Below the pieces are notes generated by a model. It had not been told where the DNA came from. It was given only the letters and a program-made list of their open reading frames with translations, and did no database searches. Of a stretch of 55,324 bases of DNA, positions 1 to 30,009 are shown piece after piece. A program made the position numbers and the translations under genes. Numbering within the stretch: position 1 is the first letter of the stretch; each line of letters opens with the position of its first letter. The DNA is from a virus. Its lineage: Duplodnaviria > Caudoviricetes. The stretch is from IMG/VR virus record IMGVR_UViG_3300030419_002654, positions 1 through 55,324 of that record, one strand, 5' to 3'.

Positions 1-62
1 ATGAGTAATAAGATAACCGCACGTGGATCTCGTCTTAATATAATATGAAATAGGAGACGTAT

Positions 63-320
63 ATGTCTATTTTTGATAAAGTATTCAACTCATTAGCAGT
101 TGAAGGAAACGAGAGGACAGCTGCTCAGATGGCTAACTTCTACGGTACTACTGTAGGATCTATCCAAGCACGTATCTCAGAAATGAGAACGAAAACTGGC
201 ATAGCTGTTTATGCTAATAAGAGAACTGATACTGCAGGAAGAACTAAAACTTTCTACAGAGTTGGTACTCCTAAAAGAGCAGTCGTTGCAGCAGGTTATC
301 AAGCGCTAGCTGCTTCGTAA
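63..320 (+). CDS. small putative helix-turn-helix DNA-binding protein
   Basis: RBS AGGAG at ~52-56; TAAQMA...VGSIQARISEMR resembles a winged HTH; basic C-terminal half. Confidence 0.6.
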   Translation: MSIFDKVFNSLAVEGNERTAAQMANFYGTTVGSIQARISEMRTKTGIAVYANKRTDTAGRTKTFYRVGTPKRAVVAAGYQALAAS

Positions 321-334
321 GGTTATCACAACCA

Positions 335-475
335 GGATGTCCATGAGGATGTCCACACAGAGGGACCTATCTGAACTCCTTACTTCAATAGTCCCTCACC
401 ACGCTAGGGATGTCCATGAGGATGTCCCTAGCGTACTCTATTAGGATGTCCACAAGGATGTCCACTTGGATGTCC
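335..475. repeat. seven copies of GGATGTCC, mostly at 12-nt spacing
   Basis: copies at 335, 347, 408, 420, 444, 456 and 468; 401-434 forms hairpin ACGCTAGGGA...TCCCTAGCGT. Confidence 0.9.
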
Positions 476-504
476 ACCACAAGCTTTTTATATAAAATAT
501 AAAA

Positions 505-860
505 GGGTCCCCCAAAAGTATCATACTCAAAACTACATATTAATATCCGATAGGGTCCAGGCCGCATTTTATGCGCGGGTCCGTCCGTGGGTCCGGGGAG
601 GGTCAGTACCAGGGTATGATACTTTTTATACTTGAGGGTAGTACCTTATTCGGGTCGGGGGTCCGTACCTTTGGTGAGGGCAGCAGGGTCCAGGGTGGGG
701 TCCTGGCACTGAAAAGTCTACGTGTGAGGGTCTGGGGTGTTTGTGGTCATGGTTGTGGTGAGGGTCGTGGGATTGGTTGAACGCCGCATATTCTGCAGGT
801 TCCTGGTCCTGGGGCTCTATAGTGGGGTCCTGGTGCTGATCAAAAAATTCTGGTCCTGGT
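505..860. repeat. G-rich island of dispersed GG(G)TCC/GGGT repeats
   Basis: many GGGTCC/GGTCC/GGGTC motifs in an otherwise AT-rich genome. Confidence 0.75.
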
Positions 861-967
861 GCATCCCAGTACATCTCATCATTCTCATCAAATCTCACAT
901 TCTCCCATAAAACCACACTAAACACCAACAACCCTAACAAAATCCAAACATACCTAAAATCAATCAT
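626..967 (-). CDS. hypothetical membrane-anchored protein with Pro/His/Gln-rich tail
   Basis: N-terminal TM segment, downstream of leftward promoter at 1079-1107; C-terminal half overlaps the GGTCC repeat island. Confidence 0.45.
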   Translation of the reverse strand: MIDFRYVWILLGLLVFSVVLWENVRFDENDEMYWDAPGPEFFDQHQDPTIEPQDQEPAEYAAFNQSHDPHHNHDHKHPRPSHVDFSVPGPHPGPCCPHQRYGPPTRIRYYPQV

Positions 968-1078
968 TTACAATCACCAAATTATTATATCAATCAAAAT
1001 TATTATTACCAATACTTTCAATATCATATTCAAAACATTATTCAAAATTTCCTCACTTATCAATTTAACATATTACAT

Positions 1079-1107
1079 ATTATATACACATCAATATTTA
1101 AAATCAA
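1079..1107 (-). promoter_or_regulatory. leftward sigma70-type promoter TTGATT-N17-TATAAT
   Basis: reverse complement shows -35 at 1107-1102 and -10 at 1084-1079 with a 17-nt spacer. Confidence 0.75.
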
Positions 1108-1190
1108 CTTTTAATTATATCGAAATAAAAAACTCCACTATTTACAACACTTTACAATATAAAAATAATTAAAATAAATTAAAAAAAGTG

Positions 1191-1219
1191 TTGATTTGAA
1201 ATAAAGTTTATGATATATT
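1191..1219 (+). promoter_or_regulatory. possible promoter TTGATT-N17-TATATT
   Basis: shares the exact 20-mer GTTGATTTGAAATAAAGTTT with the promoter at 1671-1690. Confidence 0.5.
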
Positions 1220-1279
1220 TGGGGTATGTTTTTAATTAATATTAATAATAAATTTTATAAAAATAATTTAATTAGGGTA

Positions 1280-1308
1280 TTGATTTTAAATAAGTTTTAT
1301 AGTATAAT
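1280..1308 (+). promoter_or_regulatory. early sigma70-type promoter TTGATT-N17-TATAAT
   Basis: consensus spacing, followed by RBS AGTAAGGAG and ATG 1343. Confidence 0.8.
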
Positions 1309-1342
1309 AGTTGTATATTTTAAATTAGTAAGGAGTTTTTAA

Positions 1343-1675
1343 ATGAGTAATGTTTATAGAGAATGTAATTTTTTTAATGTTATTAAATTTAGTAGTAGTG
1401 TTAGAGTTTATGATAGTGTTTTAGAATATAGTGATGTTGAGAAATTTGATAGTTTAGAAGATATATTTGAAAAGTATGTTGATGTTGAATTTGTTAAAGA
1501 TTGGTTTAATATTGATGAAGTTAAATTAGAAGATGTATTAGAAGAAAGAAATGGAATATATGTAATGAGTGTTGATGAAGATATGAGTTTATATATTTTT
1601 AAGAATGATAGTTTAGTTGATTTAATTGAGAATTATGTTTTTAGATTAGATGAAATTAGAAAAAATAATAGTTGA
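1343..1675 (+). CDS. hypothetical acidic early protein (C-free gene; no Ala/Pro/Thr/His/Gln)
   Basis: own promoter, strong RBS AGTAAGGAG, intact 110-aa ORF. Confidence 0.8.
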   Translation: MSNVYRECNFFNVIKFSSSVRVYDSVLEYSDVEKFDSLEDIFEKYVDVEFVKDWFNIDEVKLEDVLEERNGIYVMSVDEDMSLYIFKNDSLVDLIENYVFRLDEIRKNNS

Positions 1676-1700
1676 TTTGAAATAAAGTTTTGTATATAAT
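1672..1700 (+). promoter_or_regulatory. early sigma70-type promoter TTGATT-N17-TATAAT
   Basis: consensus spacing; the -35 contains the stop codon of the upstream gene. Confidence 0.8.
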
Positions 1701-1739
1701 GTGTAGTATAAATTGTTAAAAAGTAAGGAGTAATTTATA

Positions 1740-2168
1740 ATGGAAAGATTAGAAAGATATAGTGAAAGTGAAAAAATGGTTGTAAAAAATAATAGAAAGA
1801 TTTTTTATAGAAATGGGTTATATATTATTAATTGTTTATTAGAAAAGAATGGAGATGAAATTAGTTTTAGTGATTTGAAAAAGATTTTTAGAAGTAATTT
1901 ATATTTAAAAGATTTGTATTATAATATTAGTAATGTTGGTGATATGAGAAGTATGTATTGGGATTTTTATAGTTTTAGTGATAGATATATTATTAATATT
2001 AATGGAATGATTAATAGTGATTATGATAATAATATTAATATTGTTAAAAAAGGAAATAGATTATTTTTAGTTAAAGAAAATTTTAGTGTTTTGAAAGATA
2101 ATGGTTATGAAATGATTAAAGATAGTTTAGGTATTTTTAGATTTGTAAGGAGTGAAGATGTTAAGTAA
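1740..2168 (+). CDS. hypothetical early protein (C-free gene)
   Basis: promoter, RBS AGTAAGGAG and a 142-aa ORF. Confidence 0.8.
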   Translation: MERLERYSESEKMVVKNNRKIFYRNGLYIINCLLEKNGDEISFSDLKKIFRSNLYLKDLYYNISNVGDMRSMYWDFYSFSDRYIININGMINSDYDNNINIVKKGNRLFLVKENFSVLKDNGYEMIKDSLGIFRFVRSEDVK

Positions 2169-2544
2169 GGAAAATTTAGTTAAAGAAATTAAAGATAGAG
2201 TTGATATTTTAGAAGGTAGAAATATATTTGAGATATATGATATTTTGAAAGAAAGTATTGGTGAAAATTTAAGTTTAGAGAATGATAAATTTTGTTGTAG
2301 TGAAGATGATAAGTTTGTTGTTTTTGGTTGGGGAGATAGATTAGAATTTAGTGGATTTGATTTTTTTAAATTTGATTATGAAGTATATGAGTATATTGAT
2401 AATTTGATTTATGATGTTGATGAAAGTTATGATAGTTTAGAAGATATTAGTGATAATTTAGATTGTTATAAAGATTGGAAAAAAGATTTTGTATATTTTG
2501 ATATGTATGAAAGTGATAGTTATATTATAGTGAGGTTAAAGTAA
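2152..2544 (+). CDS. hypothetical acidic early protein (C-free gene; start may be ATG 2158)
   Basis: RBS GTAAGGAG at ~2145-2152; 130-aa ORF. Confidence 0.8.
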   Translation: MKMLSKENLVKEIKDRVDILEGRNIFEIYDILKESIGENLSLENDKFCCSEDDKFVVFGWGDRLEFSGFDFFKFDYEVYEYIDNLIYDVDESYDSLEDISDNLDCYKDWKKDFVYFDMYESDSYIIVRLK

Positions 2545-2645
2545 TGGAAATTATATTTTATGTTGGAATGATTGTGTGGGGTTTTTATTTATTAGTAAAT
2601 GAAGATATTGAAGATGTTAAAAGAGATTTTGGTATAGAAGAATAG
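2544..2645 (+). CDS. small membrane peptide MEIIFYVGMIVWGFYLLVNEDIEDVKRDFGIEE (C-free gene)
   Basis: TAATG coupling to the upstream stop, GAGG RBS, hydrophobic N-terminus. Confidence 0.6.
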   Translation: MEIIFYVGMIVWGFYLLVNEDIEDVKRDFGIEE

Positions 2646-2679
2646 GATCCCGCTATACAATTTTTTTTAAATAAATCTG

Positions 2680-2707
2680 TTGACTTCAAATCAAGAATCA
2701 GTATAAT
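2680..2707 (+). promoter_or_regulatory. early promoter TTGACT-N16-TATAAT
   Basis: consensus boxes followed by RBS AGTAAGGAG. Confidence 0.7.
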
Positions 2708-2744
2708 AGATATTATAGATTAAAAAAAGTAAGGAGTAAATCTA

Positions 2745-2966
2745 GTGAATATAAAAATACAAATTGATACTGGTTTTGTTAAAGATGGCGGGACTGGTAG
2801 TAAATGGAAAGTAATAAAAATTAACGAATCTGATTTGGAAGAATTTAGATTGAAAAGAGATTCTTTAGAACCTGATATGGGTTTAGAGGATTTTATTATA
2901 CATGATATTACTAGTCTGATTGAAAATGAGATTGATAATGGATTGTATGGAATATTTAATTATTAG
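2745..2966 (+). CDS. hypothetical protein
   Basis: GTG start after AGTAAGGAG. Confidence 0.65.
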   Translation: MNIKIQIDTGFVKDGGTGSKWKVIKINESDLEEFRLKRDSLEPDMGLEDFIIHDITSLIENEIDNGLYGIFNY

Positions 2967-2973
2967 GAGTAGT

Positions 2974-3066
2974 ATGGAAAATTATTTATTTGGAATTTTG
3001 TTTGTGAGTGTTGTAGTGTTTACAATATTCTTTATAATAGCTATTGATGAGGTATTCTTTAAATAA
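2974..3066 (+). CDS. small membrane peptide (30 aa)
   Basis: RBS AGGAG; MENYLFGILFVSVVVFTIFFIIAIDEVFFK; TAATG coupling to the next gene. Confidence 0.55.
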   Translation: MENYLFGILFVSVVVFTIFFIIAIDEVFFK

Positions 3067-3530
3067 TGGATATGTATTCAAAACAAGAACGAGCGGAAGC
3101 TAATAAAGAACTATCTGATGCCTTAACAGGTGTCAGATGGGAAGACGAAATGATTGAAGATGGAGTCTGTCCTAATTGTGCCGGTACCGGATATCAAGAT
3201 GGTGAATATGAGATCTGGTGTGATGATGCTGAAGAGTATGTAGAAGGAAACGAATGTGATGGTTGGGGAATATTCGGTTGTGATGAAGGTGAGATGACTG
3301 GAGCAAGTTGGGTAGAAATTCTTGAGTACGATAGAAAATGTGCTGACAGAAAAGCATCACTAGAAAGATATGATTTTGATACAGCTGTTAATGAAGTAGC
3401 GGCTTATGTAAAATTTATGTCGGATCCGAGATTATGTGGACAACAAGTCAAGATTGATTATCCTCATTTAGGAAGATACGAAAGAACAAAAGTCGTAACT
3501 GAAGGAATGCGGAAAGCTGGTTTGATCTAA
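3066..3530 (+). CDS. hypothetical protein with CxxCxGxG zinc-finger-like motif
   Basis: CPNCAGTG plus further Cys residues. Confidence 0.7.
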   Translation: MDMYSKQERAEANKELSDALTGVRWEDEMIEDGVCPNCAGTGYQDGEYEIWCDDAEEYVEGNECDGWGIFGCDEGEMTGASWVEILEYDRKCADRKASLERYDFDTAVNEVAAYVKFMSDPRLCGQQVKIDYPHLGRYERTKVVTEGMRKAGLI

Positions 3531-3554
3531 ACCACTAAAAATGAACTCCTTACG

Positions 3555-3581
3555 ACCCTGCCAATTGGCAGGGTTTTTTTT
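3555..3581 (+). terminator. rho-independent terminator
   Basis: ACCCTGCCAATTGGCAGGGT inverted repeat followed by a T-tract. Confidence 0.85.
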
Positions 3582-3590
3582 GTCAAATTG

Positions 3591-3619
3591 TTGACCTCAA
3601 ATCATATAGTTCAGATAAT
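3591..3619 (+). promoter_or_regulatory. early promoter TTGACC-N17-GATAAT
   Basis: same family as the other promoters; RBS AGTAAGGAG downstream. Confidence 0.7.
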
Positions 3620-3646
3620 AGTACTATCAATTAAGTAAGGAGTATT

Positions 3647-3835
3647 ATGGAATATTTAATGATAGAAAAGGAACAGATGGGAATTCCAGCTAGTGCTGAA
3701 TTAATATCTGAGTCTGAATTTAATGATATAATTGACAACAGTAATGTTGGTGATTATAGTCACAGTGCTGGTCTTAGTCATAGTGTATATGATTTTGAAT
3801 TGTTTATGGTTGTAGTTGATAGGAGGGATTCATAA
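3647..3835 (+). CDS. hypothetical protein
   Basis: promoter and RBS. Confidence 0.7.
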   Translation: MEYLMIEKEQMGIPASAELISESEFNDIIDNSNVGDYSHSAGLSHSVYDFELFMVVVDRRDS

Positions 3836-4149
3836 TGGAAAATTTAGTTGACATGATTGAAAGAATCTTAGAAAAATCTAATAGGATCCAACAAGGATTT
3901 TTAGATAGACTTGAAGCTAATGATCTTAGACTGTCTAGGTTAGAAGGACAGATCAAATCTATAGATAATAGACTTGAGGATCTTTATGCAAATCATAATA
4001 ATCAATTAGTTGTGATTGAACAATCAGCAAAATTAAATGCTGGTAATAATGATTCAATATCAAGACAGATTGATGGTATAGCAGATAGACAAAAATTAAT
4101 GTCTGGATTAATTGAAAATATTGAGGACAAGTTGATAGATATGTCTTAG
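3835..4149 (+). CDS. hypothetical coiled-coil protein
   Basis: RBS AGGAGG; heptad-like pattern. Confidence 0.7.
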   Translation: MENLVDMIERILEKSNRIQQGFLDRLEANDLRLSRLEGQIKSIDNRLEDLYANHNNQLVVIEQSAKLNAGNNDSISRQIDGIADRQKLMSGLIENIEDKLIDMS

Positions 4150-4159
4150 GGCATATCTG

Positions 4160-4188
4160 TTGACTTTAAATCAACAATATTGGATAAT
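4160..4188 (+). promoter_or_regulatory. early promoter TTGACT-N17-GATAAT
   Basis: consensus spacing. Confidence 0.7.
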
Positions 4189-4215
4189 AGTTGTATATTT
4201 AGTAAGGAGTAAAGA

Positions 4216-4404
4216 ATGAAAAAATATGAAACTAAAGAAACTAAAAATCTTGGAAACAAAGTTATTGTTTTAAGATATAATGAAGAAAATCCTTTATTAG
4301 AATTTATTGAAGCAGGTCTTCAAGAAGGTTTGTCTTATAAAGGTGAATTAGGTGAACTGTTTGAAAAGGCAGTTGATTTTTGTGTAGATAAAAGGATTAT
4401 ATAA
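4216..4404 (+). CDS. hypothetical protein
   Basis: RBS AGTAAGGAG. Confidence 0.7.
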   Translation: MKKYETKETKNLGNKVIVLRYNEENPLLEFIEAGLQEGLSYKGELGELFEKAVDFCVDKRII

Positions 4405-4417
4405 GGGGGGCATATAT

Positions 4418-5008
4418 ATGAGTTTTTATGGAAGATTTTTTGAACCACAAGAAAAATTAACTTTTAGAAAAGTGTTAGATAGAGTTGGTTCATTTACAGC
4501 AGTAGAATGTAAGGCATATATAGAGTCTAGTAGACAGGCTCTATATGAACTTTATAAAAAAGAAGTAGATGGAAAATATGTTTTTGATAAACAAGCAAAT
4601 CACAAAGTTGATGATGATGTCCAGCCTTTTATAGACTACATAGATGAAGTGATATCTAGACAGGGCAAATCTAGTGAGGGAGATATAGACTGCTGGAATG
4701 ACCTTATATGTATCAGGGACTATATAGTGCAGGATATATTAGGGGTATATGAGGCTGATGGATATGGCTCTCATAATTATGATAATATTAAAGTCATGGA
4801 TATATTGCTAGATGATACTAGCAAGAATCTAACAATGTGGCCTTTATTACAATATGCTAGTGACTGGAATCCTAAAATGCAGGGATATAAGAAGCTGTAT
4901 AATAAGTATGTAGATTTACATTGGAAATTAATTGAAGATTCAGATTCATATGATAGTAATATGACTGTAGAGAAATTTGAATCTAAGATATTATATAATC
5001 TGTTATAA
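4418..5008 (+). CDS. hypothetical protein
   Basis: 196-aa ORF with purine-rich RBS. Confidence 0.7.
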   Translation: MSFYGRFFEPQEKLTFRKVLDRVGSFTAVECKAYIESSRQALYELYKKEVDGKYVFDKQANHKVDDDVQPFIDYIDEVISRQGKSSEGDIDCWNDLICIRDYIVQDILGVYEADGYGSHNYDNIKVMDILLDDTSKNLTMWPLLQYASDWNPKMQGYKKLYNKYVDLHWKLIEDSDSYDSNMTVEKFESKILYNLL

Positions 5009-5196
5009 GATTACTCCTGATCCAATTCTTGGATCACTACTAAGAGAGAGCACTAGTTGCTCTCTCGCTTTATATGCGGCCCTGGCAGGTAGGTAAATTT
5101 GATACCGCATACCATATACCTTCTTTGGAATATAGCACGGATCATATGCGGCGTGTTTTGAAATTTTTTCTGAAAAATTTTTTGGTGTGAAAACTG

Positions 5197-5225
5197 TTGA
5201 CTTTAAATCGTCGTTGTTGTATAAT
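5197..5225 (+). promoter_or_regulatory. early promoter TTGACT-N17-TATAAT
   Basis: consensus spacing. Confidence 0.8.
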
Positions 5226-5253
5226 GGATGCATATTAATTAAGGAGTTTAGTT

Positions 5254-5502
5254 ATGAGTGAAATAGAACATTTAGCAAATATGATTGACAAGTTGATCGA
5301 TAAGGTTGATACGCTTGACAATAAACTTGATACGTTAGAATCTAGTATTGATGATATTAGAATTGAATGCACAAGCACTGAAAGTATGCTAAGTACTATA
5401 GACAGTGAAGTATCTAGTATTTACTCTCAAGTATCTAGTTTAGAAAGTGAGATAACAAGTATCGGATCTACTGTAGATAATATAGACGCGAGGATTGAAT
5501 GA
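5254..5502 (+). CDS. hypothetical coiled-coil protein
   Basis: RBS AAGGAG; regular heptads. Confidence 0.7.
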   Translation: MSEIEHLANMIDKLIDKVDTLDNKLDTLESSIDDIRIECTSTESMLSTIDSEVSSIYSQVSSLESEITSIGSTVDNIDARIE

Positions 5503-5663
5503 GTAAGCCAGATATTAAAGACACGTTTATCGACGATAGTGGTGTAGTGCATCATATAGATGACTTTAGACCTAGTGAAGATGAAGTGCTACAAGAGGGG
5601 CAGTGCATTTGCGGGGCTTTTGATTGCGACGAAGAATACGCGCATTGGACATCAGGATGGTAG
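5499..5663 (+). CDS. small Cys/His-motif protein (CICG...C..EYAHWTSGW)
   Basis: ATGA overlap with the upstream stop, GAGG RBS; translated by hand (54 aa). Confidence 0.6.
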   Translation: MSKPDIKDTFIDDSGVVHHIDDFRPSEDEVLQEGQCICGAFDCDEEYAHWTSGW

Positions 5664-5917
5664 AGTCAGTATTCTTAATGTTAACTATTACGGTTTCGAC
5701 TATTGACGAACCTATTGAGTTTGGTATTAGACAGCCGGACATGGTGTCGTGCGTGGCGGAGCTAGATGGGTTTGATGGTGCTCCGTTCAGTTTATTATTT
5801 ATGGGGCAAAGCATTGATATTAAGACTCAGTGTATAGCGCGCCCTATTGCTAACCAGGTTGTCAATAATGGTAAACCTATTAATGTGTTAGTTAAGGCAA
5901 ATTGTGAGACGAAGTAA
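5657..5917 (+). CDS. hypothetical protein (start likely ATG 5657)
   Basis: in-frame part of ORF 5624..5917. Confidence 0.5.
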   Translation: MVESVFLMLTITVSTIDEPIEFGIRQPDMVSCVAELDGFDGAPFSLLFMGQSIDIKTQCIARPIANQVVNNGKPINVLVKANCETK

Positions 5918-6284
5918 TCTATTTGATATACCTATGAGAAGAGTAAATATGCTAGGCGAGGATTTAACATTGAAAGAGCAGATGTTGGCTGGCCCTGATG
6001 TATTGTTTCCAGATAGCGATTGGAAAGATGAGAAGAGTGTTGACAATGATAAGTATGGTATGAAAGTTCAACATATGATAGGACCTTTTAGTAATGGTTA
6101 TCAGATGAGTGTTATTAAAGGACCTTTTACAATTGGAGGACCTAGCGGGCTATGGGAGATTGCTCCTATGGATATAGGTAGACATTTTATTGGCCAGGCG
6201 TTGCTTGATTGGGGTGATGATGTTATGGGGAGACTTACACTTGACCAAGTATATGAACAATGTAAATTATTGGAGCAGCTATGA
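5904..6284 (+). CDS. hypothetical phage protein
   Basis: SNGYQMSVIKG...GG..GLWEIA motif typical of small phage proteins. Confidence 0.65.
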   Translation: MRRSNLFDIPMRRVNMLGEDLTLKEQMLAGPDVLFPDSDWKDEKSVDNDKYGMKVQHMIGPFSNGYQMSVIKGPFTIGGPSGLWEIAPMDIGRHFIGQALLDWGDDVMGRLTLDQVYEQCKLLEQL

Positions 6285-6415
6285 CAAGAGCTAGATGGAA
6301 GAAAGGTGTTGCCAAAAGAAGAGCAGGTGCACTAGATAGATTGCTAAAGGTTAAAGAACCTAACGAAAGACAATCAAAAGAAATTGAAGTGTTACAGAAA
6401 AGGATAAATAGATAA
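6281..6415 (+). CDS. small basic protein (44 aa)
   Basis: GGAG RBS, ATGA coupling, fills the gap between ORFs. Confidence 0.55.
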   Translation: MTRARWKKGVAKRRAGALDRLLKVKEPNERQSKEIEVLQKRINR

Positions 6416-6416
6416 T

Positions 6417-6608
6417 ATGTTAGATTGGATCTACTTAGATTGGTACATAGTATTATTACCTGTAGCTTTCTTACACGGATGGTTTGTTGGTAGAAGTCAT
6501 GGCGTAAGAAAAGGTGCAGCTGATATGTTCGACCACCTATACGATAAAGGAACAAGAGTTAAAGGAAAACAACATACAAAGATTATTGAAATTAGTTTAG
6601 ATGAGTAA
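6417..6608 (+). CDS. small membrane protein
   Basis: N-terminal TM segment. Confidence 0.65.
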   Translation: MLDWIYLDWYIVLLPVAFLHGWFVGRSHGVRKGAADMFDHLYDKGTRVKGKQHTKIIEISLDE

Positions 6609-6816
6609 TGCGACAAGTAAACCTATACACGAATATAGGTATGAATACAAAGGAAAGCAAAGATGGGCTCAAGTCTATGTTAATGAAGATTCTTTTGATA
6701 TCCATTGTTTTGTGGATAACGTTTTTCAAGGTATAAGAAATATAAAGGGACACAGTGAACTGTATGCAGAGAATGCTGCAGAGAATTTTGTAATGGGATT
6801 ATATGACACCCCGTAA
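6601..6816 (+). CDS. hypothetical phage protein
   Basis: coupled ORF; HSELYAENAAENFV motif. Confidence 0.65.
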   Translation: MSNATSKPIHEYRYEYKGKQRWAQVYVNEDSFDIHCFVDNVFQGIRNIKGHSELYAENAAENFVMGLYDTP

Positions 6817-7105
6817 CCAAGAATTTCATCCAGAAGAAATAGAGAACAGTAAGCGGATATTCAAATCTGCTACTCCCAAGTATACAGCAGACTGGTACAT
6901 TAAATGGGTATCAAGTGTGTTCGTATTAGCGGCCATGTCTATGAGAGGTGTAGAAGGTTATCAATTATATGACCTATATCTTTCTATTGTAGGTATTACA
7001 GGTTGGCTTATAGTATCAGTGTTATGGAAAGACAGAGCATTAATTATACTAAATAGCTTTGGACTTTTGTTCTTATTAAGAACATTGTTCACTACATTAA
7101 CTTAA
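6803..7105 (+). CDS. small three-TM membrane protein
   Basis: three hydrophobic helices; W.DRALIILN motif. Confidence 0.7.
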   Translation: MTPRNQEFHPEEIENSKRIFKSATPKYTADWYIKWVSSVFVLAAMSMRGVEGYQLYDLYLSIVGITGWLIVSVLWKDRALIILNSFGLLFLLRTLFTTLT

Positions 7106-17281: not shown

Positions 17282-19087
17282 ATGACTAAATGGTGGACAG
17301 TTTTAATCACAATAGCCTTATTGGCATCAGTAAAGATTTGGAATCCAGATCCATTAAAATCTTTACGATACATTCAATACGATTTCTTTCAACAGAAACA
17401 GGAGCAAGTACAAGTAGATGATATTGTGCTTGTTAACATAGACGAAAAAGCAATACAACAAGAAGGACAATATCCATGGCCACGTGATATAGTTGCTAAG
17501 TATATAAACGAAGGTCCTGCAAATAGTCTTTATGTTTTGAATATGATATATTCTGAACAAGATAGATTTGGAGGCGACCAAGCATTACGAGAAGCACTAT
17601 ATCAAAAAGCTGTGGTCCTATCATCTGCACCGACCAATCAATTATCTGATGGGGTAGGAAACTTTGTTGGTGTTGCAACATTAGGACAAGATCCAGGAGG
17701 ATGGTTAAATGAATATCCAGGACTCCTTTATCCGATTGACGATCTGTCTACTGCTGCTTACGGTGTTGGCGCTACCGCTAGCGTTGGTGATGTACCCACG
17801 GGCGTCGTGCGACGTGCTCCTTTGGTCATCAGAGCCAACGGGGTTCAGTACCCTCAACTTGCACTCGACGTACTTAGAGTGTATTCAGGAGAGCCAAGCT
17901 ATTCAATCAAAGCAGGAGACAACGGAGTCGAGTGGGTAAGGATAGGTAGATTGGATCCAATCACAACTGATAGTTATAGTAATGTTCCAATAGCATTTTG
18001 GAATCAATTTAAAAGTCAGAGTATTTTGGATCCATTACCAACTGATAAGATCCTAGTGTTTGGTGTCACAGCTGAAGGCTATGCTAATCCAGTTTCAACC
18101 CCAATGGGTGCAGTGTATCCCCACGAAGTTCAAGCCCATCTGATCCAAACAATGTTATCAGGCGTTCAAATAACTGAACCCGACTGGTCTGCAATAGCAG
18201 AGCTTGGTCTTCTGGTGATCTTGTGTCTAGGAATGCTTGTAGTGGTCTATACCTTTCCCACAGCTCTTGCGGGGACATTTGGCGTTCTTCTTTTAGGCGT
18301 CGGGCCTGGAGTAAGTTATTGGCTCTGGACCGATTTAGTCTTTTTAGATGCAACTTTTTCTTTCTTTGGTTCACTAATAGTATTTGCGCAAAGTTCTTTC
18401 AATAAGTACTTTACTACTTATAAGCTGAAAGAACAAATTAAAAAGCAGTTCGGTACTTATTTATCTCCCGACATGGTTAAAATGCTACAGGACGATCCAA
18501 GTTTATTAAAGTTAGGTGGAGAAAGAAGAGAGATGAGTTTTATGTTTATGGACATATGTGGATTCACTCCCATATCAGAGCATTATAAGAATAATAATGA
18601 CCCAGAAGGTCTTGTAGAACTTGTAAACAAGTTTTTAGATTTACAAACAAAGATCATTCTAAATAATAATGGAACAGTAGACAAGTACATGGGCGATTGT
18701 ATCATGGCATTCTGGAATGCACCACTGCCTTGTGAGAATCATGCCGACATGGCAATTAAAACATCTATAGAAATCATTGAGGCAACTAAAGAATTAAATG
18801 AAGAACTTAAACCGCTTAATCTTCCTCCTATTAACGTTGGCATTGGTGTTAACACCGGCGACTGTATTGTCGGAAACATGGGATCAGAAGTTAGATTTGA
18901 CTATTCCGTCATTGGAGATGCCGTCAATCTCGCCGCTAGACTCGAAAGCCAAACAAGAAATTATGATGGGGTGGACTTGTTGCTATCAGAATTCACTCGT
19001 GAAGCAAGTACAGATGGAACATTTACAGAAGTCGATCGCATCACAGTTAAAGGCAAAACCGAGCCAGTTACAATTTACACTTACTGA
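17282..19087 (+). CDS. CHASE2-domain class III adenylate/guanylate cyclase
   Basis: IVLVNIDE, GQYPWPR (CHASE2); TM helices; FMDICGFT, DKYMGDCIM, DYSVIGDAVNLAARLE. Confidence 0.92.
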   Translation: MTKWWTVLITIALLASVKIWNPDPLKSLRYIQYDFFQQKQEQVQVDDIVLVNIDEKAIQQEGQYPWPRDIVAKYINEGPANSLYVLNMIYSEQDRFGGDQALREALYQKAVVLSSAPTNQLSDGVGNFVGVATLGQDPGGWLNEYPGLLYPIDDLSTAAYGVGATASVGDVPTGVVRRAPLVIRANGVQYPQLALDVLRVYSGEPSYSIKAGDNGVEWVRIGRLDPITTDSYSNVPIAFWNQFKSQSILDPLPTDKILVFGVTAEGYANPVSTPMGAVYPHEVQAHLIQTMLSGVQITEPDWSAIAELGLLVILCLGMLVVVYTFPTALAGTFGVLLLGVGPGVSYWLWTDLVFLDATFSFFGSLIVFAQSSFNKYFTTYKLKEQIKKQFGTYLSPDMVKMLQDDPSLLKLGGERREMSFMFMDICGFTPISEHYKNNNDPEGLVELVNKFLDLQTKIILNNNGTVDKYMGDCIMAFWNAPLPCENHADMAIKTSIEIIEATKELNEELKPLNLPPINVGIGVNTGDCIVGNMGSEVRFDYSVIGDAVNLAARLESQTRNYDGVDLLLSEFTREASTDGTFTEVDRITVKGKTEPVTIYTY

Positions 19088-29311: not shown

Positions 29312-29340
29312 ATTATACTACATTTGCGATTTGAAATCAA
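29312..29340 (-). promoter_or_regulatory. promoter TTGATT-N17-TATAAT (minus strand)
   Basis: upstream of the GT25-like gene. Confidence 0.7.
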
Positions 29341-29980: not shown

Positions 29981-30009
29981 TTGACTTCAAATCGAACATT
30001 TAGTATAAT
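29981..30009 (+). promoter_or_regulatory. promoter TTGACT-N17-TATAAT
   Basis: consensus. Confidence 0.8.

Follow-up and report, generated by a model that had tools for sequence, protein, structure and literature searches.

The window analysed here is the whole of a linear viral DNA record of 55,324 nucleotides (nt), IMG/VR record IMGVR_UViG_3300030419_002654, with an estimated completeness of 33%. Near its left end two early transcription units diverge, and the sense strand of each lacks cytosine (C): for about 200 nt in the leftward arm, which comprises an open reading frame (ORF) for 23 amino acids (aa) and the first 32 codons of a 113-aa gene, and for about 1.45 kb in the rightward arm, which comprises four small genes. 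Each arm begins with a promoter that is sigma-70-like and belongs to the phage's own family, and positions 870-1187, the subject of this study, are the leftward arm of this conserved divergent pair of early promoters in a pelagimyophage-like T4-type phage. The features that make up the two arms are listed from right to left.

1343-2645, plus strand: rightward C-free operon with genes at 1343-1675, 1740-2168, 2152/2158-2544 and 2544-2645
1191-1219, plus strand: first rightward early promoter, a C-purged copy of the family motif, with further copies at 1280-1308 and 1672-1700
1156-1187, no strand: pure A/T spacer upstream of the rightward promoter, in which the two C-free zones overlap (base count)
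1108-1155, no strand: non-transcribed stretch between the promoters; its plus strand has 10 C and a single G, at 1122
1079-1107, minus strand: leftward early promoter, with the -35 hexamer TTGATT at 1107-1102, a 17-nt spacer and the -10 hexamer TATAAT at 1084-1079
870-1072, minus strand: C-free 5' part of the predicted leftward transcript (the minus strand has no C from 870 to 1121)
1045-974, minus strand: hydrophobic 23-aa ORF with a TTG start, 5 nt after the Shine-Dalgarno-like site GAGGAAA
626-967, minus strand: 113-aa gene with an N-terminal transmembrane segment and a tail rich in Pro, His, Gln and Asp
588-827, minus strand: C-rich, G-poor stretch (about 40% C, 17% G), a candidate Rho-utilisation region, which overlaps a series of GGGTCC motifs

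An exact base count of the plus strand from 870 to 1187 gave 149 A, 100 T, 68 C and a single G at position 1122, so that the minus strand is nearly C-free. This agrees with a preceding sequence-only reading of the same DNA, as does the count for the spacer 1156-1187, which had been described as pure A/T. The G-free runs of the plus strand, 870-1121 (252 nt) and 1123-1187 (65 nt), are followed in the window by a run of 61 nt, and the C-free run of the plus strand, 1156-2648 (1493 nt), by one of 106 nt (2917-3022). Since position 1155 is the last C of the plus strand before the C-free run and position 1188 the first G past the G-free zone, 1156-1187 contains only A and T and is the overlap of the two C-free zones; it is probably UP-element-like in its role. 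At most one G among 69 G/C positions is expected with P ~1e-19 at equal odds and with P ~2e-15 at the usual sense-strand C share of 0.42, and for local composition the log10 P of 870-1187 is -14. Codons of the form NNY (Y, pyrimidine) end in C in 0/22 cases in the leftward zone and in 0/245 cases in the rightward C-free genes, the baseline being 507/1837 (27.6%; P ~8e-4 for the leftward zone). About 70% of the missing C is replaced by T, which reaches 41% vs about 30% genome-wide, and A reaches 39% vs 35%.

The controls included a set of about 958 kb in 123 loci, made up of 119 unrelated IMG/VR stretches and of four metagenome contigs, L004 to L007, which carry relatives of the locus and were compared at the DNA level. 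Outside these four contigs, the longest C- or G-free run in the control set was 127 nt. The longest C-free and G-free runs were 83 nt and 46 nt in the whole genome of Pelagibacter phage HTVC008M, and 63 nt and 43 nt in the first 62 kb of Methylophilales phage Melnitz.

The leftward promoter matches the sigma-70 consensus at 10 of 12 hexamer positions in a consensus scan, is one of the nine family-motif matches described below, and aligns with the leftward promoters of L004, L005 and L007. Its -35 hexamer lies at 1107-1102, which places G1122 upstream of it, as the sequence-only reading had it. Leftward transcription is predicted to start near 1072, and the 5' part of the RNA would then hold only A, U and G. 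The leader RNA is weakly folded (-10.4 kcal/mol over 146 nt, z = +2.66 vs shuffles). The 23-aa ORF that had been proposed as possible was recovered from TTG 1045 to 974, in frame with a 29-aa ORF at 974-1063 of the ORF list; judged from its sequence, the product is probably a small membrane peptide, and the relatives have another small membrane peptide gene at the same position. Upstream of the leftward -35, a C-rich, G-poor patch of the plus strand with CCCCAC-like words was observed at 1108-1155 and likewise at about 144-172 in L005 and about 856-886 in L007; a binding site is one possibility. No further leftward promoter beyond 1107, considered as a reason for the C-poor minus strand at 1108-1187, was seen by eye or in the consensus scan.

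ORF 626-967 is a real gene, as its homologues support: three were found at 95, 86 and 67% identity, together with a distant positional homologue in L007 (E 4e-4). Its codons 1-32 are free of C, the first C lies at 869 in codon 33, again in agreement with the sequence-only reading, and C-ending codons are favoured afterwards (13/19 NNY codons vs the 27.6% baseline). In all close homologues the border between C-free and C-rich sequence follows the same YWD motif; Pro, His, Gln and Ala are absent from the part before it, and Thr occurs there once (P0112). The claim that the leftward transcript is C-free thus stood for its first ~200 nt and failed from 869 on, where the RNA would enter the most C-rich, G-poor sense stretch of the contig. 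After 869 the sense strand contains 37-47% C and 10-20% G in a 60-nt profile. The minus strand at 672-771, with 48 C and 13 G per 100 nt, has the top minus-strand value of the contig, tied with 3216-3315; the latter is antisense, which leaves 672-771 as the sole top C-rich, G-poor window in the sense direction of genes. The candidate Rho-utilisation (rut) region 588-827, which lies largely within the conserved ORF 626-967, has the C-rich, G-poor composition of such sites over 240 nt, at least ~80 nt being called for; the part checked for folding was 500-640 (z = -0.82). Of the words sampled from 500-3000, 13% and 7% occur in two marine metatranscriptome runs, which is evidence of nothing.

Assignment of the phage relies on genes elsewhere in the contig. 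T4-type baseplate and tail genes, a T4-like virion module, are present, the baseplate wedge protein having at most 39% identity to that of any GenBank phage. A 601-aa adenylate/guanylate-cyclase-like gene, the name being taken from GenBank records, lies at 17282-19087. Among 50,697 GenBank phage records, full-length matches to it were obtained only from HTVC008M (42%) and the Melnitz phages (35%), with two further partial matches from Acinetobacter phages (24% coverage), which makes the gene a useful marker of this phage group. The T4-type virion genes and the distribution of the cyclase-like gene together point to a marine pelagimyophage-like T4-type phage. GenBank phages gave no DNA match to positions 1-6000 and no tblastn match to the 142-aa protein of the rightward operon.

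The promoters of this phage share an extended motif, TTGAYYTNAAWT followed after 9-12 nt by TAKADT, which has nine matches on the two strands of the window vs a mean of 0.02 in 200 shuffles. The matches, each upstream of co-oriented genes, are found at the following positions.

1191, 1280, 1672, 2680, 5197, 19391 and 29981, plus strand: promoter-family matches
29340 and 1107, minus strand: promoter-family matches

The leftward promoter at 1079-1107, which had been proposed from the letters alone, is therefore a good member of the family. Inside the C-free zones the motif itself is purged of C, reading TTGATT..AAATAA vs TTGACT..AAATCA elsewhere. The genes behind promoters 5197, 19391, 29981 and 29340 contain 11-16% C; because the same promoter class drives genes with normal C there, promoter activity as such is not the cause of C loss. 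A second outward-facing pair of the same family was observed at 29312-29340 (minus strand) and 29981-30009 (plus strand), about 640 nt apart and followed by genes with 15-16% C. Divergence and promoter class alone thus do not give C loss.

In the rightward operon, the exclusion of C extends to the proteins, which contain no Pro, His, Gln, Thr or Ala. The 142-aa protein (1740-2168) is built from 15 kinds of amino acid and received a confident fold prediction (mean predicted local distance difference test score, pLDDT, 86.2; predicted template modelling score, pTM, 0.80). A Foldseek comparison of the model with the Protein Data Bank returned a best E of 0.18 and weak winged-helix rows only, an Atlas lookup for the function of the C-free proteins gave no usable lead, and PHROG and Pfam yielded nothing significant for the genes of both arms (best E 0.0069, which falls short of the Pfam cut-off). 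From their position and size, and by analogy with T4, the genes of both arms probably have immediate-early takeover or exclusion functions. Beyond the operon (2649-7000) the C content per gene is 5.4, 2.7, 11.4, 7.9, 9.8, 6.3, 10.0 and 11.2%, then about 15%, with G at about 20%. An intrinsic terminator at the right end of the operon was considered and found unconvincing: the hairpin is weak and A/U-rich (-10 kcal/mol, z = -1.72), with the first C in its 3' arm. Selection for unstructured RNA beyond composition was likewise rejected, the mean z being -0.59 for nine 150-nt sense windows vs -0.81 for 16 controls; only two 5' leaders are less folded than shuffles. An antisense RNA of 1156-2648 would be free of G and contain 20-29% C, an ideal composition for a Rho substrate, so that antisense transcription there should be efficiently terminated.

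The exclusion is conserved. The 142-aa protein has 109 metagenomic homologues at 59-96% identity, 78 of which lack Pro, His, Gln, Thr and Ala altogether; Pro or Ala occurs in 0/109, and all residues that require C (P/H/Q/T/A) amount to 45/14,546 vs a baseline of 23.7%. Of the four contigs, L004, L005 and L007 span the junction between the arms. L004 has one C in 182 nt leftward (plus strand 1-182, one G), then a 72-nt promoter region, and is C-free rightward from 255 to 1410 save one C at 613. L005 is G-free on the plus strand from 1 to 172 (0 C in 172 nt leftward) and C-free from 164 to 982 (0 C in 819 nt), the A/T overlap of its zones being only 9 nt (164-172). L007 combines a rightward arm that is C-free from 924 with a relaxed leftward arm (9 C in 197 nt). 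L006, which is without the junction, is C-free from 1 to 703. The strict mirror arrangement is therefore found in 3 of the 4 junction-bearing loci, the window included. As to IMG/VR, protein, profile and neighbour-gene queries for relatives were all empty, the exact promoter word had 0 matches, and the pattern GGATGTCC-N4-GGATGTCC returned 119 stretches, all unrelated and with no long one-base-free run.

A gene for a membrane peptide of about 33 aa, which in the window forms the end of the rightward operon (2544-2645, plus strand), heads the leftward arm in three relatives, where it was located by homology.

L004 50-148, minus strand: ~33-aa membrane peptide gene
L005 1-80, minus strand: ~33-aa membrane peptide gene
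L007 693-797, minus strand: ~33-aa membrane peptide gene

Its presence in different arms implies that genes move between the arms and remain C-free. In this family Thr/Ser-Glu-Pro occurs in 16 of 17 matches (the query being biased to the L007 type) and Asn-Glu-Asp takes its place in the C-free type, which indicates that the C rule overrides a conserved proline.

The relatives also show where the rule acts. The 229-nt rightward zone of L007 contains three C, all confined to the 17 nt that separate the -35 from the -10. L004 has a single C in its rightward spacer, and its leftward promoter has three, placed in the -35, within the spacer and directly past the -10, vs one in the 182 nt downstream. 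Because C is tolerated in the promoters of relatives and not downstream of them, the rule starts at about the transcription start, which implicates the RNA or the transcription bubble rather than duplex DNA. The 23 tolerated C, located in promoters or near operon ends, are preceded by A in 15 cases, by T in five, by G in two and by C in one. The leftward arm shows that the rule is tied to each transcription unit and not to one DNA strand, and on this point the sequence-only reading, which had C avoidance following gene direction on both sides, was borne out. Its view that a one-strand chemical artefact is not at work also stands, since the independent contigs L004, L005 and L007 span the switch and the genes are conserved; their shared switch further rules out an assembly junction near 1160-1190, which had been named as a possible objection.

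The sequence-only reading had gone further and taken the polarity switch itself as a pointer to a mechanism coupled to transcription or bidirectional replication. This step is not supported. A sense strand cannot do without G, which is needed for the start codons ATG, GTG and TTG, for Shine-Dalgarno sites and for the codons of Gly, Val, Asp, Glu, Met and Trp; if G and C are to stay on separate strands, the coding strand must therefore be the C-free one, so that the switch is not independent evidence of a coupled mechanism and no replication explanation is required. The case for transcription comes instead from the C tolerated in promoter spacers. Real genes on both strands of the window have a sense-strand skew of +0.04 to +0.3, and the plus-strand skew reverses at 25.1-29.3 kb and 36.4-41.9 kb, where the genes are on the minus strand. 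As the skew follows gene orientation throughout the window, bidirectional replication is not supported, and the suggested switch of cumulative GC skew near 1170 was not found independently of gene orientation, in what is a partial check on a contig of 33% of the genome. In our judgement, the rule is likely to be kept by selection on the transcribed part, either the nascent RNA or the displaced non-template strand, and, as the other side of the same judgement and just as likely, it neither acts on duplex DNA nor is set by replication. Mutational asymmetry associated with transcription, as sole cause, does not fit a C count of 0/1493, its maintenance in 78/109 homologues and the 11-16% C behind the same promoters elsewhere.

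To the left of the leftward arm, two repeat arrays adjoin the A/T-rich zone.

335-475, plus strand: seven GGATGTCC repeats in a 12-nt register, which are all copies in the window and adjoin the small gene 63-320
505-830, plus strand: eight GGGTCC motifs in one orientation (nine in the whole window on the plus strand, none on the minus strand)

L007 has seven GGATGTCC and five GGGTCC copies in the same order and orientation (L007 10-113 and 192-467). Within ORF 626-967 the GGGTCC motifs are read in two frames, so that they look like a DNA signal (a binding array, an origin or another element) and not like a protein motif.

As to the cause of the exclusion, we rank escape from Rho first, sparing of cytidine triphosphate (CTP) second and a C-directed nuclease or deaminase third. 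Our leading reading, held at a probability of about 0.3, is that Rho, the termination factor of the host, does not detect the first phage transcripts. To act, it has to bind pyrimidine-C dinucleotides in RNA that is unstructured, rich in C and poor in G. An RNA of only A, U and G would offer it no loading point before ribosomes and phage factors are in place. The switch to C-rich, G-poor sequence at 869 would be the opposite signal, a Rho loading site, which would halt leftward transcription before the repeat arrays and the convergent gene 63-320; as a C-free RNA has no G-C terminator hairpin, a factor-dependent stop would be needed before that gene. The small membrane peptides would be immediate-early takeover or exclusion functions. 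Observations that point to Rho are the extreme of sense-strand C at 672-771, the preference for C-ending codons there (13/19 NNY), the A-C context of the tolerated C and the graded C depletion in the next genes. PMC2988021 states that the addition of Rho confines T4 transcription in vitro to immediate-early RNA, and describes rut sites as unstructured and C-rich.

A number of points weigh against escape from Rho. The leftward transcript, its start and its end are predictions from sequence. Rho needs several C within ~80 nt, so that it is not obvious why its avoidance should demand a run of 1493 nt with no C at all or the sacrifice of five amino acids, and T4 immediate-early RNA is not C-free. 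Ribosomes would in any case shield the operon genes, whose Shine-Dalgarno sites are strong. The C-rich stretch is part of a conserved ORF and has same-orientation GGGTCC motifs in two frames, and its composition may therefore serve a DNA element or the His/Pro-rich protein and not Rho. L007 has a relaxed leftward arm, C is present in 16 of 17 small-peptide homologues (with the query bias noted above), and the nearest isolates, HTVC008M (whole) and Melnitz (first 62 kb), have no such region. Finally, the minus strand is nearly C-free for 80 nt upstream of the leftward -35 (1 C vs 10 G), which a rule on the transcript only does not predict.

Two other explanations also place the rule on the transcribed part. 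Expression of the earliest genes may be independent of CTP, the first messages being made from ATP, GTP and UTP only, so that they would not suffer when CTP is scarce in a tiny starved host, is depleted, or is replaced by a chain-terminating analogue such as the 3'-deoxy-3',4'-didehydro-CTP (ddhCTP) made by prokaryotic viperins; in that case the leftward gene would have a built-in delay in its C-rich tail. This possibility, which we regard as doubtful, explains best how absolute the exclusion is, since zero C despite five lost amino acids fits a cost at every C. It is also consistent with a zone that begins at the transcription start, with C tolerated toward operon ends, where nothing upstream is delayed, and with the graded depletion in the following early genes. 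The idea has a precedent in an animal RNA virus, for which a section of bioRxiv 10.1101/2020.06.20.162933 proposes that CTP supply shapes viral C content. Against it, the message of L005 would stall at a C placed 37 nt ahead of the stop in its last C-free gene, later phage genes need CTP as usual, and HTVC008M, the nearest isolate on a very small host, has no C-free region. Somewhat less likely again is escape from a C-directed enzyme, either a C-cleaving ribonuclease of the host or a cytidine deaminase whose substrate is early RNA or the non-template strand laid bare by transcription, with C selected out as a liability or erased by enzyme-driven C-to-U changes. Viruses that purge the targets of host enzymes are a known theme, as in APOBEC and ZAP footprints. 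The absolute, strand-specific exclusion from the transcription start would follow, as would the ~70% of lost C that became T and the -35 hexamer TTGATT instead of TTGACT, and the A-C context of most tolerated C fits a context preference. Such an enzyme is difficult to reconcile with a leftward gene in which C abounds from codon 33 on and of which the RNA and the non-template strand would be fully exposed, and with the normal C content of genes that follow this promoter class at other places; the skews due to spontaneous transcription-linked deamination are 0.04-0.3 in this contig and not 1.0. We know of no characterised anti-phage C-directed enzyme, no specific search having been made.

The remaining explanations carry far less weight. 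A rule on duplex DNA, by which G and C on separate strands remove G/C palindromes and with them nearly all restriction sites, would allow polarity to flip only across an A/T-only spacer, and the flip does cross one. In 870-2648 there is one G/C-containing palindrome of 4 nt (TCGA at 1120) and none of 6 nt, vs 26-39 and 9-13 in three control stretches of equal length. This depletion is an automatic consequence of C-freeness and hence not independent evidence; moreover, the promoters of L004 and L007 have C beside G in the -35 or spacer (a GTCAAC site included) and transcribed parts free of C, and avoidance of sites does not need the removal of every C. T4-type phages inject the whole genome quickly, which leaves little gain from protecting 1.8 kb. 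We consider this rule very unlikely, and slightly less likely still an origin near 1170 from which bidirectional replication would give the leading strand an excess of G to either side. For an origin speak the iteron-like arrays at 335-475 and 505-830, the zone of 80-85% A+T that adjoins them and the divergent promoters at the switch, and T4 origins use promoter-primed R-loops. Against it, the skew tracks gene orientation everywhere, reversals included, the plus strand left of 870 is G-rich and thus of the wrong sign for a leftward leading strand, replication skews are small and not 1.0, and conserved genes obey the zero-C rule down to their synonymous sites and their choice of amino acids; the contig covers no more than 33% of the genome. 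PHROG and Pfam scans identified no initiator gene, with seven GGATGTCC and eight GGGTCC copies beside the A/T-rich zone. The least probable of all, to a degree that it may be neglected, is that the pattern reflects chance, local A+T richness together with hydrophobic codons, or an error of assembly or sequencing. A+T richness is indeed very high here, and the membrane segments encoded in part of the region have T-rich codons, but the probabilities of 1e-14 to 1e-19, the run lengths in the control set and the two isolates, and the same switch in three independent contigs with intact, conserved ORFs stand against it.

Comparison with known systems places the locus close to T4-type immediate-early units, with which it shares host-type -35/-10 promoters, A/T-rich upstream DNA, clusters of tiny genes including membrane peptides, and a contig that also carries a T4-like virion module. 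The early genes of T4 do contain C, whereas here one base is excluded from promoter to operon end and proteins are made of 15 amino acids. A further likeness is that Rho delimits immediate-early RNA in T4, as a passage in PMC2988021 has it. Pelagimyophages are reported, in a part of PMC7029224, to be without the T4 regulators alt, modA, modB, asiA and motA. The contig-wide sense skew of +0.04 to +0.3 and the replacement of lost C mostly by T have the same sign as transcription-linked asymmetry. In that asymmetry the sense strand has G in excess of C, and it includes non-template C-to-T deamination and Szybalski purine loading. The magnitude here is 1.0, however, with a sharp border, it is kept through up to 41% protein divergence, and the same promoter class elsewhere in the contig does not produce C-freeness. 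The predicted leftward transcript spans both ends of the range to which Rho responds, from zero C to 40-48% C with 13-17% G in weakly structured RNA, and it differs from known Rho-resistant transcripts, which rely on ribosomes or antitermination factors and do not omit a nucleotide. G-less and C-less cassettes, made for in vitro transcription without one nucleoside triphosphate, are likewise transcribed segments without one nucleotide, but they are man-made and non-coding, and the present case is natural, protein-coding and shared by more than 100 environmental relatives. Viral purging of what the host recognises is known from restriction-site avoidance in phages, from depletion of CpG and APOBEC motifs in animal viruses and from ACA-less messages that resist MazF, and G/C palindromes are nearly gone here too; the known cases are motif-wide, genome-wide and incomplete, and here the purging concerns one base, on one strand, completely, over ~1.8 kb.

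A full-text literature search, with supplementary files outside its coverage, found no description of C-free phage genes, and in a term search of the pelagimyophage survey PMC7029224, again with supplements outside coverage, the words 'cytosine' and 'GC skew' were absent. To our knowledge there is no natural precedent, the nearest being synthetic G-less cassettes and ordinary strand bias. As far as this search shows, the complete exclusion of one nucleotide from natural, conserved coding transcripts is apparently new. It would reveal a pressure in the first minute of infection strong enough to sacrifice five amino acids, and, with the 142-aa model at pLDDT 86, would offer a natural proof that 15-letter proteins fold. 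One-base-free runs beside promoters may serve as a simple signature for immediate-early genes in uncultured phages, and the sharp border between C-free and C-rich sequence offers a short, well-delimited target on which the hypotheses of Rho, CTP and a nuclease can be tested. The odds seem to us about even that an abundant marine T4-like phage lineage runs its very first genes on messages of A, U and G and on proteins of 15 kinds of amino acid, in two divergent units that need no CTP and present no cytosine to Rho, a nuclease, a deaminase or a chain-terminating nucleotide analogue, with the C-rich switch in the leftward gene as stop or timer.

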